Part shown: one piece after another, positions 4,965-14,760 of the stretch | Position numbering within the stretch: the stretch's first letter is position 1 | How the letters are laid out: each line of letters opens with the position of its first letter | Assembly (NCBI RefSeq): GCF_038025025.1 | Contig: NW_027117344.1 | Span: 620,001 to 684,000, forward strand | Direction: 5' to 3' | Length of the DNA stretch: 64,000 bases | Source of the DNA: Phyllosticta citribraziliensis | Lineage: Eukaryota | Position numbers and translations under genes: made by a program | The notes under the pieces: model-generated | Seen by the model: the letters and a program-made list of their open reading frames with translations, nothing else | The model's database searches: none | What the model was told of the DNA's origin: nothing

Positions 4965-7819
4965 GCCAAAGAAAAAGGTTGGGGAAATCCACCAGAGACG
5001 AGAAGGAGATGTAGTCCGCAGTACGCATATTACACTTGAATAATTCGCGAGTCAAAACCTTGCTCCCTCCCTTAACTCATAGCCCCATCCACGACAACTT
5101 TCTTCATCGACCAAGCCATCGGCCGGACCATCCTCTCTCCTGCGCTCCTTGTATAATCGAACCTCGCTCCTACTATGGTTCGGCTGTGTGGTCCTGTTAC
5201 CCTTTTGAATTGAGCCTTTTATTCTCTTGACTCCCCGCGTTCGATGCATTGGTCCCTACTTGTCAGATGTGTTGAGAAGCTTTCTGAATGACGTGAAGTA
5301 TTTCGTGCTCCCTACGCACTCGTTTACCTATTCGACTCTCACATACGCTGTGGGCCGCCCTTTTCAACCCCACTCCCACAGATCTTTTCGGACATGACGA
5401 TAGCAACGACGATGACGGCAACATGCGGCCGCATTGATCTTTTCAAAACAAAGCCATCTCGATGTGTACACAGCCGCCACTCCTCCCGAACCAAATCCCC
5501 GTCATTTCCCCAAATCCGCTCAAATATACCCACCAACAGACCTGCCTGCGAAAGACCTTCTCCAGCTCCGGAGCTCACCCGTGCCTCTGCATATCTGACG
5601 TACTTCCTCGCTCGACCAATCAATGCACCAACGCTTCGATACCCTCCCCACAGTTCTCCTTTGCCACACGTCCTCTTCCTCGCTAATTGACTGGCTGGCT
5701 GGCTGACGTTTCAGCTGCTTCGTATCATTCGTATTGATGGACGTCATCCTGTCAGCCAGCCACGCGCGCTTTCGCTTTCCGTGGTTGCGGCGCGAGCGAG
5801 CGAGCGAGGCTGGATGGTAAAAGTCGTGGCATACAGATGAGTTGGAATTTTACGGCGATTGCCTGTGGAGGTGCACGAATGCTCCTCGTGCATGGTTTAT
5901 CTAGTCATCTTCTTCTTCTTTCGTGTGTTTTGTCATCCAAACTTGAAGCGTAAGCAGTGGAGAGTTGGGCATGTGATGAGGTGCACTACTACTGCCTGCT
6001 CGCTCGTCTGATTGGTGGGAAAATTAGGTGTGTCTCGTTCCGTCCCGCCCGCGTGGGCGGTAGTGGCGGCTGCTGTGGTTGATGTAGATTGTAGAGTGTG
6101 TGTAGGAGGAAAATAAAGGGGGGAGATGCGGGTTTGGCTGTTCACCATTTGTTTGCTCTGGGATTCGTATGGCGTTTGATGCTACCTTCTGCTATTGCTG
6201 CTACGGAGAATGGTCTCTGGGATGCTTTGATAATGTACATGTATTTTGGGTACGCGGTTTGGCTGAAGCGGATGTGATAGAAATTCTACCGTTGTTTATG
6301 GTCGCCATTTGAATGATCCAAATCTCACCTCTCAGTGAGGCCTCCATCCCATTCCTTTTCGTAATCCTGATCAACAGCTTCTCCTGTTCCTACTCCACGT
6401 GAGCTTCTTTGTACCAAGTCTATGATATGAGAAGGGTCGGAAGCACTGATGGGACAATCTATGCATGAGAAGCGACAAAAGCTGGAACTGTGCTGCAGCA
6501 GTTGCCGACGTCATAAACGCTCCATGCGCGCCGCGTACCCGACCCTGCTCCATTCCCGTATCCCGTTCCCGAGCTCCACACCCGGCCCTCCGCTTCTCCA
6601 TCCCTTCTCCCCACAACCCGCCGACGAACCCATCATCCGTACACTTTCCAACGCCTCTACCACATGCAACCTCTCCGATACCGCGAGCCACCGAATCCTC
6701 CAGCGCAGCCACACCTACCAATCTTCCCACCAACGGCATAAACGACGTCTCAAGACCCTGGACGACCGGAGCCGATGCCTACCCCGGTCCTACCCCGGCC
6801 GCGCTAAGCACGACCGCCGCACCCCGCACTGCTTTTTGCTCCTCTTCCCCGGGCGGCCTTTGCGCTGATGTGCTGCCCCGCTGCCGACATCCCGACCACC
6901 GATGACGGATGATGGAGAGATATACACACTTATACCCAGATCGCTTTGGCAGCTCGCCGTCGGCCGGGCCGTGAGTGCATGGTCCACTTTTCTTCACCAC
7001 ATTTTGTGGTGCTGTCGTGCCGAGGTTTGTGATACTGCCTTGTTTCTGCTTCGCAATTGCTTCGCAGAATCGGGGGAAACACAGGCGAAGGGACAGACGA
7101 TGAGCATTCGTGTGTACTGTCCACCTGCCCATGTGTACACGCACATCACGGACGATGGCTTGAAGGATCCCAATGGCTTTCGAGTGAAGAACGAGAGAGC
7201 GCGAAGTGAGCAATGTTCCGTCCGTCCAGCCTTTCCAGTCAGTCATCAATAAACAAGCATTCGATCAGAGTAAATCAAACAGACGCTACTGTAACTGTGG
7301 GGAATGCAGACCATGAGCGAGAGCGCTACCAGAAGCGGCATGATGGCCCGGGTATTTGCAGGCGCAATAGAGCCAGACTGGAAGGTTGGCATGGGTTCGA
7401 TGGCGTCGACGGCGGGGGTGCGGTTCGGCTGTCACGTCGCATGCCACCCTGCTCCAGTAGCTTGTGTATTTGCGAAGAGCAAGGCCAGGTGTGACTGGAG
7501 GAGACCTTGTTGCTGATTGGTTGGCTTGCTGCCTTGCTTCTCTGCCAGCCAATGGCTGCGTGCTGGCTTGGGCAGATGGGAAGTGATTGTCGGTCCATCT
7601 GTAGCGACGTGTTGGTGACCTGCACCACGACGCTCGTGTAGTAGTGTGTGGCACCGCTTTTTGGAGTAAGCACTTTAGCCGGCGGAGGATTTTGTGCTGC
7701 GGAGCTTGCTTCAACTTTTTGAATTTAGATCGCGTCCTTGCTTGCTTGCGCGCTCGCTCGTTGCCTGCGCAAAATTCGTTGTTGTTTTTCACTTGCCATT
7801 ATTCCTGCGAGCGTCAGCG

Positions 7820-10078
7820 ATGTATGTCATCACCAATATCTATGTCCTAGCGGCGTTTGGCACCATCGGCGGTGCCCTGTTCGGGTTCGATGTTAGGTCA
7901 GTTAGTCGCAGCGCAGATTTCCCCATCTGGCTCGCTGTCGCGCGCAATATTCCATGAGTCGAGTCTTACCTTTGAGAAGTTCCATGTCGGCCTGGATCGG
8001 CACCGACCAATACCATGACTACTTCAACAATCCGAGTTCTGATCTCCAGGGAGGGGTGAGCAAGTCTCAAGGAGCATTCGAGTGCTTGTCAGGCTGAGAA
8101 ATAATGCCAGATTACGGCCAGCATGAGTGCGGGTAGTTTCGCCGGAGCTCTTGCGGCAGGTTTCTTGTCCGACAAGCTGGGCCGCAAACATGCCATGGAA
8201 ATCGCAGCGTGCATTTGGCTCGTAGGCTCGGCCATCCAATGTAGTTCGCAAAATGTCGCGCAGCTGGTCGCCGGTCGGGTCATAAACGGTTTCACAGGTG
8301 CGTTGTCGCGAACCGTGGGGTGGGCGGTCGACGAAGGCCCCTGGAGAGCATCACTGAATCATCACTGACCACCACCCTCTTCGAACAGTCGGCATCATGT
8401 CTTCGCAGGTCCCCGTCTATCTTGCCGAACTGTCTCCTGGGCGCATCCGCGGTCGCATTGTCGGTATCCAGCAGTGGGCCATCGAGTGGGGCATCCTGAT
8501 CATGTACCTCATCTCCTACGGCTGCTCCAAGATTGCTGGCCCATCGTCCTTTCGTCTCGCCTGGGGTCTTCAGGGCATCCCCGCGCTCGTCTTGCTCGCT
8601 GCTTTGTTCTTATTCCCGGAGAGCCCTCGGTGGCTCGCGTCCCAGGATCGCTGGGAAGAGACCCTCAACGTCCTCGCTATGCTCCACGGCAACGGTGATC
8701 CGCAACACCCCATCGTCCAAGCTGAGTACTTGGAAGGTTTGCGTCTCGTTCCTTTTTGTTTTTCCTCGGCGCTTCTTTGCTTCCGAAAAATGGTGTTCTA
8801 ACTCGTCCTCCACCCCAGTCCGCGAAGCTGTCCGAATCGCATCCGAAGCCGCTGAACTCCCCATCTTTGGACTCTTCGGACCCAAAATGTGGCGTCGTAC
8901 ATTAGCTGGCATGTCAGCGCAGGCAAATCAGCAAATGCTTGGAGGAAATGCAGGTCACATGACTTTCCTGGTGTTGTAATACTCTTGCTAACGCGCTCAG
9001 GTCATGATGTAAGCTTCCGGGACTTCAAAGGCTCTCTCCGGGGAGTCCAGGGAGTCAAACTAACGCAGAGATGCAGGTACTACATCGTTTACGTATTCGA
9101 AATGGCCGGGCTCACGGGAAATGTAAACCTATACTCGTCAGCGATCCAATATGTCATTTTTCTGGTCACTACCGGAATCACGCTGCTATTCATCGAGAAG
9201 GTAGGCCGCCGGCAGCTACTGTTCTACGGTGCCATCGTTATGATGGCTCTTAACTTCGCTGTCGCTGGTATGATGGCGAACTATGGAGAATTCGTACCGG
9301 ATGGCGTCAATGGCTCCTCAACCGTCCGCTGGAGAGTTACTGGCCCTCCTGCAAAGGGCATCATTTTTGCATCGTATTTCTTCGTGGCCATCTATGGCTT
9401 CACTTGGGTGAGTAATTGTTGTTTCATAAGATCCAGAATGGTGTTGAGGGCGTGGTGGTGTTGGAAACTCATGATGTTGAGAAAATTCGACCATCGGAGG
9501 TGCGAGCCTTATCGCGCACGAGCCATCGGATCCCCCACACTACCTACGACCCCTTAAACTCGCAGCATCGTCGCGCTCTGCGAATACAATCCCGCTAACA
9601 GCGAAAATAGGCACCGGTGGCGTGGATTTACTGCTCAGAGGTCTTTCCATTGCGCTGGCGCGCCAAAGGAGTCGGTCTCTCTGCCGCCACCAATTGGATC
9701 TTCAACTTCGCTCTGTAAGTTGGGCAGTCAAATTTGCCCCACCAATGTACTTACCTCTCGCTCCCCAGCGCGTACTTCGTCCCCCCAGCTTTCAGAAATA
9801 TTCAGTGGAAGACTTACATCATATTCGGCGTCTTCTGCCTTTGGTCCACGATCCATTCATACTTCGGATATCCAGAGACGGCCGGCAAGACGCTCGAGGA
9901 GATCGACCTCGTCTTCGAGCCTGGCGTTAAGCCTTGGAAGACGAGCGGCATCAAGAGTAACTTCGCCGAGAGGGTAGCGGCCGTTGAGAACAAGCTGGGA
10001 GATGAGCCAGTCGGTGGCGTCGAGGTCGGCGAGAAGGGGCAAGTGTTCAGGCACGAGGGAGCTGCTGCGTCGGTTTGA
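7820..10078 (+). CDS. MFS sugar porter (high-affinity hexose transporter-like), many introns
   Basis: FGTIGGALFGFD N-terminus, LSDKLGRK, PVYLAELSP..IRG, PESPRWL, QQMLGGN-VMMYY, PETAGKTLEEID motifs of the sugar porter family. Confidence 0.92.
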
Positions 10079-10437
10079 GGGCTGGGGAATGGAGGACCAA
10101 GGCTTCTGGGAACACGGGGCTTGGATTCGGCACCAGACACTGTCTCTTGCTGGAGGAAAATAGCTTGCAATGCCGCGTTCAACAAGGGTCTAAATCACCA
10201 GCTTTTTCGGAGCGCAAGATGCTTATGAGCAAGTGGATGATGCGTTGCGGAGACCAGGATGAGGTGTGCGACGTCAGAGGAGCGGGTGAGCGACAGCCGC
10301 TATACCAGATTGGGTATAGCGGATGTCGCTCCTTGAGCTTCCGCAGACGACAGGCGACACGACTGAACATCAAGGACGACCGGAGATTCAATAATGCATT
10401 GGCAAACGGCTTCATATTTCTCGTGATTGCAGCGTCA

Positions 10438-10614
10438 GGGAGCATTCAGACGATCCAACGCGGCCCACATCGGGAGCATTCGACCCCATTCGCGACACAC
10501 TCATGTCCTACGCCGCCACGCATGTTTTGTACCAAGTCTTGGATGACGAATCCAGTCTGTCAATCAACGTATTTCTAACCATGTCCTCCTCTGATCATGC
10601 AACTGGGAGCATTC
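10438..10614 (+). repeat. Three copies of GGGAGCATTC (10438, 10472, 10605)
   Basis: Exact 10-mers read directly; first two are 34 nt apart; reverse complement of the array at 12623-12732. Confidence 0.8.
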
Positions 10615-10946
10615 CTTCGCTGACACGCAACTACTTCTACGCTGTTTCGCGGTGGCCATCAAACAGTGTGAGAATGGCGGACAAAGTTGCTGGACAGTCT
10701 TCTTGTAGATCATAGTACCCATCTTAGCATCTCACGTTGAGAAGTTCCCGCCTGGCACGACGTGGACGTGTGGGTAAAAGCCAGGCTGATTTGTTCACGC
10801 AGTTTACTCTGCGGTGTTTAAAGTGCTTTTCTCCACTCTTTCCATTCCACTCCTGGTGCTCCTTTTTTCACTTCGTCTCTTTTTCTTTCCGTCTTTACCT
10901 TTACAGTACTTTGCTTCACGGTCAGCTCATGATTTGAGGGACACAA

Positions 10947-12353
10947 CTAACCTTTCTGTATCTTGTTGGACTTAGGCCCTCCCTTGCCCTCGTCACCGTC
11001 CTCTCGCTTCCGTTTGTTCGATTCGGGGGGAGGGGGCGGAGGGGGCATTGAGGATCCGCCTCGTCCACCAAACCCACCCCGTCCACGAGGTCCGCCCCGA
11101 CCGCGACCGTCGCCACGACCACGACCACGACCACGACCACGGAATTCGCCTCCTCCGCGGGTTGCTGCTTGAGGCTGGCTCGGGGGCTGGTGATTCGTCG
11201 TGGCAGTGCTGCTCGCCACGTTTTGCGCCAGCGTTGGGGCGACTGTCGCCGCGAAGGTTGCCACCCAGGATGCTGAGGCTTGGGCGTACTCCGCGGAACC
11301 CAATGGAAAGCCATTTCTTTCAATTGAGCCCATATGATGGCTCAATCCCTCCTTCATAATGGCGTTGTATGCGTCCGCCTGTTGTTGTTGTTGCTGCCGC
11401 TGCCGCTGCCTTTCCTCATTCTGCTGCCGCTGACGCTGCCGCTGCGCTTCCCTGATTGGCGCAATTCTCTTTGATGCCGCCGAGCAGGTCGTCGTGCTGG
11501 CATGAAATAGGTTGCAACGCTCACAACGTGGAGCAGTGCAGAGGCCTCTGTGTAAAACGCCGCATCTTTCGCAAGTAGGCGTGTCTCTGCCGTCAATCTC
11601 CTTTTTCCCAGCCTCTATAAAGGCTGTGCGTTTCTTGAAGGCCCTCCTTTTGAAGCATGGCGGGGCATGCTTCTGCTGACATTGGGCGCAAGCTGGAGCG
11701 CCGGCATTGGTCCACTGCGTCATTGCCTGAGACTCAGCACTCATGAAGGTCTTCCATGCCTCCCGACGCTCTTTGAATGGCACCGTATCATCACCCAGCC
11801 TGATACTTGGTGCAGGCGGGCGACCAACGATCGCTGGCATTGCAGCCACATTGGCGCCGTCTTCTTGCTTTCCGGCATCCTCAGCATGCGCGGACATCTT
11901 GGGCTCAGGAGTGTGATCTCCCGAGTTCTCGGCCACCGCGCCGAGACTGTACGGACTTGGAGCCGAAGCTCCCAGTCCCGAAGTCACGTCCAATGGACCG
12001 TGACTTTCTTTCCTGTGCAGAGACGGAGCTCCGCTTGCTTTCCTTGGAGCCGGAGCTCTGGGCCTTTGGCCAGCCTGATGAGCGGTGGTATCATGCAGGC
12101 CGCCAAAGTTCACGCCCGTACCAAACATCGGCTGCTGCCGATTGTACTCAAGCTGGTACTGCATGTCCTGTCGCGTTTCCGTCAGTGCGCGTCCTCGTGA
12201 ATGCTCCTTGTGCACGACACATACCTCGAAGCCCGTCGGGCCTTGACCGTACGGCGCCGAGCCACGCATGCTCCTGGGCGCGCGCGGGGCCGACGGGGGA
12301 GGCTGGTCACCGGCAGCCTGGCCGCGCTTCTGCTGGTTGTCGTGAGCAGACAT
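10947..12353 (-). CDS. Orphan putative nucleic-acid-binding protein with three CX2CX3HX3-5C knuckles, Q/R-rich tract and RGG box
   Basis: Long open frame from ATG 12353; in-frame GTATGT...CTGAC...CAG intron 12168-12224; motifs [49 protein letters not shown] tract. A GTTAGT donor at the ORF end may extend the gene to about 10818. Confidence 0.65.
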   Translation of the reverse strand: MSAHDNQQKRGQAAGDQPPPSAPRAPRSMRGSAPYGQGPTGFEVCVVHKEHSRGRALTETRQDMQYQLEYNRQQPMFGTGVNFGGLHDTTAHQAGQRPRAPAPRKASGAPSLHRKESHGPLDVTSGLGASAPSPYSLGAVAENSGDHTPEPKMSAHAEDAGKQEDGANVAAMPAIVGRPPAPSIRLGDDTVPFKERREAWKTFMSAESQAMTQWTNAGAPACAQCQQKHAPPCFKRRAFKKRTAFIEAGKKEIDGRDTPTCERCGVLHRGLCTAPRCERCNLFHASTTTCSAASKRIAPIREAQRQRQRQQNEERQRQRQQQQQQADAYNAIMKEGLSHHMGSIERNGFPLGSAEYAQASASWVATFAATVAPTLAQNVASSTATTNHQPPSQPQAATRGGGEFRGRGRGRGRGDGRGRGGPRGRGGFGGRGGSSMPPPPPPPESNKRKREDGDEGKGGPKSNKIQKG

Positions 12354-12622
12354 CTTGAGAGAGGGAGAAAGAGAGAGAGAAAAAGGTTGTGTGTAAGTGT
12401 GTAGGTGGGTTGAAAAACGAAGCTGTAGACGAAGGCGGAACGCGAGTTCGTAGACAGACGATGGGGTGGAGGGTGGAAGAGGGAAGGTCGAGGATGAATT
12501 TTGGAGTCGAAGGTGGGTGTTGTGGGCGCGCTCCTTCCGCTCCGGCTCTGTCGCCCACTGTCTTGGGCGTGACTTCCTCGCCATGACCGCCAGCCCTCCG
12601 TCTTGTGGGTGCTACAGCTAAC

Positions 12623-12732
12623 GAATGCTCCCTGTCCGCTTGACTGCAAGCCCTCGAATGCTCCAGGTCCATTTGGCTACTTGATCGAATGCTCCCTGTG
12701 CTTGTGGCTGCTAACCATGGAATGCTTCCTGT
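12623..12732 (+). repeat. Degenerate ~31-33 bp periodic array with core GAATGCTCCCTGT (12623, 12656, 12687, 12720)
   Basis: Cores GAATGCTCCCTGT, GAATGCTCCAGGT, GAATGCTCCCTGT, GAATGCTTCCTGT, spaced 33/31/33 nt. Confidence 0.8.
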
Positions 12733-12954
12733 CCGCGCTCTTACGTTGATGTCAACACTACCTGTCCACCCGTTCTCTGTCTTGTTTGGCGCCAGTCACT
12801 GGTCCCATTACCGTAGATTGAATCGTGATTGCTACCCTCACATCCACCAGACTACAATCAAGGCCATCAAGCAATCATATTTTGTCTATCATGCAGCTCC
12901 CTCTATGCTATTTTGCGCGTAGCCGCCAAATAAACCGAAAGGCCCCGTAAAACC

Positions 12955-14760
12955 CTACGCAGCAAGCTTTTCATCCTCTACTCTCTTGACAATCAGACTC
13001 CTGATACCGCTCAGACCCTCGCTCTTCTGCACGACGGTGACGCGCTTCTCCTTGTCCTCCAGCCCGACAAACTGCTCGGGCAGCACCGTCTTAAAGTCAA
13101 AGTCGGGCTGGCCGACGAGAGCCAGCTCGACGGCGCTCGAGAACTTGGCGGGATGCGCCGTGGCGAGGGAGATGTGGTGGGTCGACGCGGGGACGCGCTC
13201 GACGGAGCGCAGGGCGGCGGCGATGCCAACGGCCGAGTGCGGGTCGAGGATGTAGTTGCCGTTCTTGGTGAGGGTGCCGGCGGTGCCGTTGTTGGCCGAG
13301 GCCTTGGGGCCGGCCTGGGAGGCGGTGGAGAGGTACACGTCCTTGATGGTCTGGAGCGTCTGCTGGTCGGACACGCGGTCGGACTCAAAGTCGGCGCTGG
13401 CGGCGTCGAGGATGGCCTGCTCGACGCCGAAGCCGTCCTTGGTCTTGAGATCGTTGAGCCAGCCCTGGACCTTTTCGCCGGCAATCTTGCGCTTCTCGGC
13501 GACGGACGAGGCCGACGCGCCGTACACTTGGTACGCGAGGAACCAGAGCAGACGCTCAAAGTTGCTCGAGACGAGAATGTCCATGGCGGGGCTCAGCGTC
13601 TCCTTGACGCCCTCGGCATGTGCCTCGACGCCGTCCTCCTTGAGGCCACCCTCGGCTTCGCGGCCGTGGACGGCCTTCTTCTCGTAGTGGCCAAACTTCC
13701 AGAACCGGTTGAGAATGTCATTCTCGTTGGTCGCAATGACGAGCTTCTCCGCTGGCAGGCCCATGCGCTTTGCAAAGTACCCAGCCAGAATGTCGCCAAA
13801 GTTGCCAGTAGGAACGACAAAGCGAACCTGCGAGCCGGCGGTGTACGAGGGGGAGCGGATGAGGGAGAAGTAGGCGGCAAAGTAGTAGGTGATCTGGGCG
13901 AGGATGCGAGCCCAGTTGATCGAGTTGACGGCGGCGAGGCGGTGGGTCTTGTTGATGGCCTCGTCGGCAAAGAGGGCCTTGACAAAGTCCTGTAGAGTGT
14001 TAGAGGGATGTAGCCGTCGAGAATCAGCCTCCTACCTGGCAGTCGTCAAACGTGCCATCCACCGCGAGGTTGTGGACGTTGGCATCCAGGACCGTCGTCA
14101 TTTGCGCCTCTTGAACGGGGCTGACCTTGCCCCGAGGGTGCATGATGAAGACCGAGACATCCTTCTTGCCCCTGAGACCGTAAATGGCAGCGGAACCAGT
14201 GTCTCCACTGGTGGCGCCAATGACGGTCAAGTGCTCCTTGTCGCTCTCAGCCTTTCCCTTGTTGCGCCTGACCAAAAAGTATTCAAACAGGTTTCCGAGG
14301 AATTGGAGAGCGACGTCCTTGAAGGCAAAGGTGGGGCCATGGAAGAGCTCGAGGAGGTGGACATTGTTCTTCTCGTCCAGCGTCACGGTGGGCGTGCGGT
14401 CCTGGGCGCGAAAGGTCGAGTAGCTCTTGCGGATGAGCTCCTTGAGGTCGGCGGCGGGTATCTCGGAGGGGGAGACGTAGAGGGAAAAGATTTCAAAGGC
14501 GAGCTCCTCGAACGAGTGGTTCTTCCATTTGGACTCCCAGTCGGCAGGCAGGGAAGGAATCTCCTCGGGAATGAAGAGGCCTCCGTCGTTGGCGAGACCC
14601 TTCAAGACGACATCCTCAAAAGACAGCTGGTGCGGACGACTCAGCGCATGGCTTCAGCGCGCGCGGCGAGCGAGGAATTGGCGCCGCGGAAGGAGGGACG
14701 TACATCATAAGATCCTCCTCTTGTGCTGAGGTATCTTTGCGAAGCGGTATGCGAAGACAT
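12955..14760 (-). CDS. THR4: Threonine synthase, 2 introns
   Basis: RYLSTRG start, GLANDGGLFIPE, PLP-lysine motif FHGPTFAFKDVALQ, ATSGDTGSAA, TLSPAMDILVSSNFERL, LATAHPAKF. Confidence 0.96.

Follow-up and report, generated by a model that had tools for sequence, protein, structure and literature searches.

Facing arrays of a MITE-derived repeat around a knuckle/RGG gene of Phyllosticta citribraziliensis probably reflect separate old insertions beside a resident gene

In the window analysed here, a stretch of 64,000 nucleotides of the Phyllosticta citribraziliensis genome, a gene predicted to encode Cys/His knuckles and an RGG tract is flanked by arrays of one 10-bp motif, GGGAGCATTC, which face each other across the gene and raise the question of whether gene and arrays form a single unit. 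A preliminary description of this DNA proposed three models: (a) a mobile element with subterminal sites that carries the gene, (b) an autoregulatory module in which the protein binds its own transcript, or (c) clustered transcription-factor sites. The analyses described below indicate that separate, old insertions of non-autonomous DNA transposons (MITEs) probably came to lie beside a resident gene, and that the layout is ordinary, neither a cassette nor a self-regulating switch. The locus, in which the knuckle gene lies between a transporter gene on the left and threonine synthase on the right, comprises the following features.

7821..10078, plus strand: multi-intron gene, MFS sugar-transporter-like by predicted family and placed from its open reading frames; left neighbour, with intron 9407-9609 spliced in run X1
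10288..10331: hairpin with 19-bp arms and a 6-nt loop (z = -8.7), 3' of the transporter and outside the arrays; at its only stem mismatch (10323), runs X3 and X7 have a base that pairs
10421..10430, plus strand: left copy of the 10-bp direct repeat TCGTGATTGC, judged not to be a TSD
10433..10541, plus strand: probable decayed 3' half of a family-2 MITE, with motifs at 10438 and 10472 and then a TIR relic at 10515-10539
10598..10626, plus strand: lone motif copy at 10605, flanked by family-1-like sequence; probable third relic
10739..10809, minus strand: 3' non-coding segment with dispersed homologues, unexplained
10947..12167, minus strand: second exon of the knuckle/RGG gene (406 codons and a stop), with three predicted Cys/His fingers (about 11484-11690), a Q/R-rich helix, an RGG tract (about 11060-11150) and a basic C-terminal KRKR
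12168..12224, minus strand: in-frame 57-nt intron with one motif copy (12199-12208, one mismatch)
12225..12353, minus strand: exon 1, 43 codons
12606..12743, minus strand: decayed family-1 MITE interior with four repeat units (12720, 12687, 12656 and 12623)
12823..12832, plus strand: right-hand copy of TCGTGATTGC, likewise not regarded as a TSD
12955..14735, minus strand: threonine synthase gene THR4, right neighbour, from open reading frames with the start coordinate read from the sequence

The eight motif copies that the preliminary description had placed within about 2.3 kb were all re-found. Three exact copies lie on the plus strand downstream of the gene, at 10438, 10472 and 10605, spaced by 34 and 133 nt. 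Five lie on the minus strand, exact at 12623 and 12687 and with one mismatch at 12199, 12656 and 12720, the copy at 12199 being inside the intron as described. The upstream copies, 270-376 nt ahead of the ATG and past a CT-rich tract, are spaced by 33, 31 and 33 nt, in agreement with the reported period of 31-33 nt. At one mismatch or fewer, the window holds 12 matches compared to a shuffle mean of 6.29 (12 or more in 1 of 100 shuffles), and since eight of the 12 fall inside 2.3 kb, their clustering is not due to chance. A further one-mismatch copy, at 8070, lies in a short intron of the transporter.

The motif is not specific to this locus. Its 813 exact copies in the 31.35-Mb genome far exceed background, with 20 copies of a reversed control and about 70 expected from base composition. 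GGGAGCATTC forms the core of a 33-bp internal repeat in two families of MITEs, and exactly 33 nt was measured for 38 of the 71 within-cluster spacings in 464 kb of tiles, picked for motif density or paralogues. Elements of family 1 are mostly 150-220 bp long and end in CACAGTGGGTG (CACAGTG ends), their end pairs spanning 133-432 bp; of 33 candidate end pairs, which include some mis-paired duplicates, 18 have a TSD of 4 bp and none has one of 5 or 6 bp. The family-1 end word occurs 119 times in the genome versus 11 for its control. Family 2 begins C[AG]AGGCTTGG (C[AG]AGGC ends), with core pairs of 109-358 bp and a 3-bp TSD in 8 of 18 pairs. Genome-wide, both families consist of short, non-coding TIR elements with a constant TSD length and many dispersed copies, at least 49 matches for family 1 and at least 33 for family 2.

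Profiles of the families, built from 25 (family 1) and 15 (family 2) elements, some of them inside the tiles, assign 28 of the 83 exact motif copies in the tiles to family 1 and 19 to family 2, and no reversed-control copy in the 464 kb falls in a profile hit. The motif originates in MITE interiors. The other 36 copies lie in neither profile, and thus further families, or a motif kept by the host, may exist. In intact elements all 91 motif copies are on the same strand and none is on the opposite strand; the motif is therefore an internal direct repeat and not an inverted subterminal signal. Within the elements, the motif mismatch rate is 0.12 in family 1 and 0.09 in family 2, compared to 0.21 and 0.24 for the spacers and 0.08 and 0.13 for the terminal repeats, rates that are biased in favour of motif and ends by the choice of elements on those features. 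Because the motif is kept as well as the ends and two to three times better than the spacers, it may represent a putative cis site for a transposition protein. A search of the genome for a CACTA transposase (PF02992) returned no match, as did its controls. An end pair 4.5 kb apart (C8:265.7-270.3 kb), considered as a long parent, was set aside, as it lacks a 4-bp TSD and showed no transposase-like open reading frame on inspection. In the titles and abstract openings of the literature consulted, no description of these families or of this motif in fungi was found, and these two fungal MITE families with a common repeat core, apparently uncatalogued, are a by-product of modest value.

The upstream array aligns to positions 41-180 of the 217 in the family-1 profile (about 21.1-21.2 bits, E 1.1e-5), a score reached in none of 300 trials in which the motifs were kept and the spacers shuffled; its match to the family-2 profile is not significant (21 of 300 shuffles). 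The array is homologous to the family-1 interior beyond the motif itself. Its motif copies are almost intact, with 38 of 40 bases kept, yet the element ends are gone, and neither terminal repeats nor a TSD are recognisable around it. On the downstream side, the probable relic of a family-2 3' end at 10515-10539 has a score reached by 6 of 2,000 background windows. Since this is a single relic, from one of 11 end comparisons of which the other ten were not significant (best 68 of 2,000), and since the spacers of the motif pair alone are not significant (62 of 300 shuffles reach their score), the pair can be placed in family 2 as probable only. The 5' end of this relic is not recognisable. The copy at 10605 is 82% identical over 39 nt to a family-1 interior (5 of 300 spacer shuffles reach the score) and is probably a third relic. 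Searches with the array DNA only, each array alone, matched just the window itself, by a method that skips common words. Apart from the one probable family-2 3' end relic, no pair of ends with a TSD belonging to the arrays was found, and they are therefore relics rather than intact elements.

The facing arrangement does not appear to be special. Array clusters were compared on contig C1, which holds the first 100 of the 813 motif copies. Neighbours 0.3-3 kb apart face each other in 5 of 17 cases, with 4 back to back and 8 parallel, and three distance cut-offs gave no enrichment of facing pairs (5 of 17, 7 of 25 and 12 of 40). Close neighbours are about three times as frequent as under uniform placement (17 vs 5.7). 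Given this close clustering, and facing pairs at no more than their share, arrays that face each other around a gene are to be expected occasionally.

The main rival to separate, decayed insertions is that MITE-derived arrays were later co-opted as sites for a host DNA-binding protein, with selection keeping the motif. MITE-borne transcription-factor sites are described in plants, in the part of the source that was available (PMC5950925), and the lower mismatch of motif than of spacers would fit, as would near-perfect copies without ends at this locus, the exact copies outside recognisable elements (36 of 83) and the placing of relatives' differences between the copies, described below. Yet the motif has decayed about as much as the terminal repeats, which fits conservation during amplification followed by neutral decay, and the selection of elements by motif and ends biases the rates. 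Co-option is regarded as unlikely, and so, to the same degree, is its specific form, with the upstream array as a promoter array for the knuckle gene and the 3' array serving the transporter. For model (c), the origin of the clustered sites is explained by MITE interiors, although they may have gained a secondary use as binding sites.

A single element that carries the gene should be evident from its ends, its copies or its absence from relatives. Around the locus, no two family ends pair up with a TSD of 3 or 4 bp, no Pack-type element spanning 10421-12832 with matching ends and the family TSD was found, and a search of the block against the same genome gave no second full copy at the sensitivity used. 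An empty site with a single 10-bp repeat, as an insertion would leave in relatives, is absent from the four runs, in which 15 of 17 joints were examined and none skips the locus (run X5 has cover in 5 of 30 bins). A contig from run X7 stays collinear between the transporter and THR4, through both arrays and the gene, with 145 differences over 11428-13800, and run X3 shows deletions inside the arrays, for example at 10485-10612 and 12635-12720. Near the arrays, the relatives' differences fall between motif copies (6 rows, among 40 of the 586 difference rows).

The direct repeat TCGTGATTGC, which the preliminary description had called TSD-like, is present at both 10421 and 12823. For random pairs of segments 100, 150 and 250 nt long, the chance of a shared 10-mer is 0.9%, 2.3% and 5.7%, and the repeat is thus somewhat unusual, yet we judge that it is not a TSD, because 10 bp is not the TSD length of either family and the last base of the left copy (10430) differs in runs X3 and X7. 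With arrays that match different MITE families, no bracketing ends and no empty site in these runs, transport of the gene by one element is very improbable. What survives of the mobile-DNA idea is the origin of the motif in MITEs; a single carrier or a cassette finds little support.

The gene occupies 12353-10947 on the minus strand and would encode 449 residues. Its 57-nt intron, read from the sequence, has GTATGT, ACTGAC and CAG signals and is in frame without a stop. The intron is skipped in the public gene models of two species (P0003 and P0004), and the models at the locus lose the fingers wholly or partly, as P0003 ends once the second finger begins and P0004 uses another frame. The RNA-type run, which covers the gene in pieces only, contains no splice joint for this intron; the cover from run X1 includes 10830-11351 and 11958-12153, with none at 12301-12900.

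Parts of the gene have relatives elsewhere in the genome. Exon 1, the intron and the 5' CT-rich tract have a 69% homologue at C5:765.7 kb, which retains the intronic motif copy and precedes a broken SF1-helicase-like gene. The 3' segment at 10739-10809 has three genomic copies (control 0), matching the paralogue at C7:914.8 kb (79% over 75 nt) and, at C2:426.2 kb, a small gene that looks unrelated (94% over 35 nt) and that the family profile does not detect. The segment has no Rfam match, two miRNA hits in the Rfam search being chance ones (E 0.3), and folds no better than shuffles. Three paralogues were confirmed, and for two of these, orthologues are present in several species of Phyllosticta; two weak candidates, at C7:594 kb and C9:690 kb, were not confirmed by the family profile. 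The arrays are absent beside all three paralogues: the 10-kb tiles around them hold 0, 3 and 1 single motif copies and no hit to either MITE profile. The paralogue on contig C6 has one exact copy just past its stop, in the same orientation as at the locus.

With three paralogues and 78 representatives at E ≤ 0.001 in a profile search, the gene can no longer be called an orphan. Among 20 representatives looked up, the named ones come from Phyllosticta, Diplodia, Lasiodiplodia, Aplosporella, Coniosporium, Byssothecium, Periconia and Dothidotthia, and a plant Ty3 Gag (P0069) was matched weakly. By sequence, the protein family is present at least in Dothideomycetes and is without a Pfam name for its core. 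The predicted fingers are of the forms CX2CX3HX3C and CX2CX3HX5-6C; the canonical CX2CX4HX4C occurs in 1 of 57 aligned family sequences and not in the window protein, a basic C-terminal patch in 52 of 57, and three or more RG in 14 of 57. A Pfam scan of the window protein gave nothing below E 0.03 and no zf-CCHC (PF00098), and 72 of 73 relatives had no hit at E ≤ 0.001. The best E in a PDB sequence search was 0.12. The AlphaFold model of the core (pLDDT 94.8, pTM 0.65) found no Foldseek match at E ≤ 0.001, which is no proof of a new fold; the structure search VIA gave a best Z of 5.1, on helices, and the nearest named Atlas clusters are knuckle proteins at 0.77-0.81, to be taken as a lead only. 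Given three Cys/His fingers, an RGG tract and a basic tail, we infer a nuclear, zinc-dependent nucleic-acid binder, probably of RNA, that would have no special tie to GGGAGCATTC. The titles and abstract openings of the literature consulted yielded no description of the family, and this unnamed Dothideomycete zinc-finger/RGG family, misread by public gene models, is a second by-product of modest value.

Accession numbers of the gene and THR4 follow one another directly in P. citrichinensis and in two assemblies of P. citribraziliensis, the latter validating accession order as a measure. Five P. capitalensis assemblies place a family member three to four numbers away from THR4, a synteny of accession order and not of DNA. 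By this measure family members adjoin threonine synthase in three Phyllosticta species, and the P. capitalensis protein is 32% identical over 264 residues. The members checked in Diplodia corticola and Aplosporella are not near THR4 by accession and contig, and the homologue on one metagenome contig is not next to it. The gene would therefore have stood beside THR4 since early in the genus Phyllosticta; because the Diplodia corticola and Aplosporella members lie elsewhere, it may have moved before the genus arose. Most likely the gene is an old, vertically inherited and fast-evolving resident.

These comparisons also bear on whether the 2.4-kb block could be a single non-autonomous element of great age, or two MITEs combined, that brought the gene here ahead of the radiation of the genus, in which case TCGTGATTGC would be the TSD. 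Such a block would account for the facing arrays and the direct repeat of 10 bp, as well as for the members away from THR4 in Diplodia corticola, Aplosporella and the metagenome contig, and the dispersed homologues of exon 1 and of the 3' segment indicate that pieces of the gene have moved. However, the two sides match different families and lack matching ends with a 3- or 4-bp TSD, a perfect 10-bp TSD would hardly last while the protein drifts to 32% identity, the left repeat is imperfect in two relatives, no empty site appeared in the four runs, and the genome search gave no second full copy. We consider such an ancient carrier very improbable.

Least probable of all, and barely credible, is model (b), in which GGAG sites in the intron or leader of the gene's own RNA are bound by the protein and pair with the complementary copies downstream. 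Lin28 and nucleocapsid knuckles bind GGAG, the intronic copy reads GGAG in the sense direction and is kept in the C5 homologue, and the protein combines Cys/His fingers with an RGG tract. However, canonical finger spacing is nearly absent from the family and the zf-CCHC profile has no hit, the intron folds back around the motif no better than shuffles (z = +0.93), and the transporter intron carries the same motif. The upstream copies lie 270-376 nt ahead of the ATG, beyond the CT-rich tract; the paralogues lack the arrangement; and the motif is missing from the 10-kb metagenome locus of a distant homologue. The 813 copies, at unrelated genes, and the non-Lin28 spacing of the fingers speak against self-regulation in the same way.

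A related proposal is that the three-finger family is a domesticated transposon accessory or nucleocapsid-like protein that reads either the 813-site GGGAGCATTC or the 10739-10809 segment. This is quite improbable, and it would matter if true, as a host gene would then be tied to a transposon-derived signal found throughout the genome. Reading of GGGAGCATTC would make it a host-encoded reader of a genome-wide motif common to two MITE families with different ends; reading of the 3' segment, shared with a 30%-identical paralogue, would suggest a family-wide autoregulatory loop.

Based on these data, separate old MITE insertions beside a resident gene explain the locus best. In this model, a gene of an unnamed Dothideomycete zinc-finger/RGG family would have stood beside THR4 from early Phyllosticta on, and its flanks would have gained two or three independent MITE insertions, a family-1 copy upstream and a family-2 copy with a further fragment downstream. 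The facing arrangement would be happenstance, one of four about equally common orientations, and the ends would then have decayed, leaving arrays of the internal 33-bp repeat with its GGGAGCATTC core. That the arrays are separate insertion events is our inference from their family matches. Several observations weigh against it: the upstream array retains no TIR or TSD, the downstream family-2 call hangs on one relic, neither profile takes in 36 of the 83 exact copies, and near-perfect upstream copies with vanished ends could mean host selection. The exact copy past the stop of the C6 paralogue, the intronic copy retained in the C5 homologue and the low chance rate of the shared 10-mer (about 1-6%) also weigh against it. 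As it stands, the locus matters little, since decayed MITEs beside a lineage-restricted gene are common.

The protein resembles retroviral and Lin28 CCHC knuckles (PF00098) in its short tandem Cys-Cys-His-Cys clusters, RGG tract and basic, disordered flanks. It differs from them in its finger spacings, CX2CX3HX3C and CX2CX3HX5-6C, and in a first finger within a helical hairpin and, unlike retroviral knuckle proteins, has no capsid domain or pol. The elements recall the CMCT clade (EnSpm/CACTA, Mirage, Chapaev, Transib, Plavaka and ESTA), which, in the portion of the source available, has 5'-CA..TG-3' ends and a 2-5-bp TSD (PMC12730594). Family 1, with CAC..GTG ends and a 4-bp TSD, is similar; family 2 begins CAAGG or CGAGG with a 3-bp TSD, and agrees with these ends in its CAAGG variant only. 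Membership of the clade turns on a DDE transposase with C(2)C and H(3-4)H motifs, whereas the resemblance here is one of ends and TSDs, and the window relics keep neither intact. Transib is reported absent from fungi in the accessible text of one study (PMC5751038), and no 5-bp TSD was seen here.

More generally, MITEs with internal repeats are described, in the parts of the sources consulted, as SIRC in Arabidopsis, with internal tandem repeats and end-less relics (PMC10342631), Tetris in Drosophila virilis (PMC4079207) and a minisatellite MITE of Porphyromonas gingivalis (PMC4596501). As far as those parts describe them, the present families differ from all three in their fungal host and in one 10-bp core placed in two shells with different ends and TSD lengths. 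As in SIRC, direct repeats with divergent spacers lie in a small TIR element, and the cassette outlives the ends as a free-standing array; the upstream array of the knuckle gene resembles such an end-less cassette.

The 3' side of the knuckle gene carries a sequence that recurs at two other places in the P. citribraziliensis genome:

Window 10739-10809, minus strand: shared segment with a 17-nt core, knuckle gene
Contig C7, 914825-914842: the C7 paralogue's copy
Contig C2, 426164-426180: the copy of a small C2 gene

The core, of which the genome holds exactly three copies, is embedded in a segment of 35-75 nt and lies 140-260 nt past the stop codon, in sense orientation, in all three genes; the C7 paralogue is 30% identical to the knuckle gene. 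Contigs of other loci bearing the same core were seen as loose ends in the sequencing runs X1 and X3. The segment is a candidate for a shared 3'-UTR element of the three genes.

A 69% copy of the knuckle gene's 5' tract, exon 1 and intron precedes one of a group of helicase reading frames, by our reading DNA2/NAM7-like, on contig C5:

Contig C5, 760-776 kb (tiles L021 and L079): cluster of SF1 helicase ORFs, one long and several broken

Motif arrays lie close to this cluster.

In P. capitalensis, THR4 lies three to four accession numbers away from two different knuckle-family members, one of them without the double finger, depending on the assembly (proteins P0014, P0023 and P0092), which suggests that the knuckle-gene locus there has either a tandem pair of genes or alleles that have diverged.

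Motif arrays of other periods point to additional repeat families that share the motif as their core:

Tile L067, 9082-9253: period 54 nt
Tile L011, 817-915: period 49 nt
Tile L062, 6700-6857: period 76-81 nt

The motif and a stem-loop also mark the transporter:

Window 5805-5895: further family-2 end relic upstream of the gene, with a motif copy nearby (5877)
Window 8057-8111: short intron with a sense motif copy
Window 10288-10331: strong 19-bp hairpin 3' of the gene (z -8.7)

Where the hairpin's stem has its sole mismatch, two relatives have a base that pairs; the remaining listed differences all fall within the loop. One contig of X1, a spliced, RNA-type run, spans the downstream array (window 10185-10772), its strand unreadable from contigs, and abuts pieces from the 3' side of the transporter. 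Within the transporter intron, the motif sits between the 5' splice site and the branch point, a placement like that in the knuckle gene's own intron.
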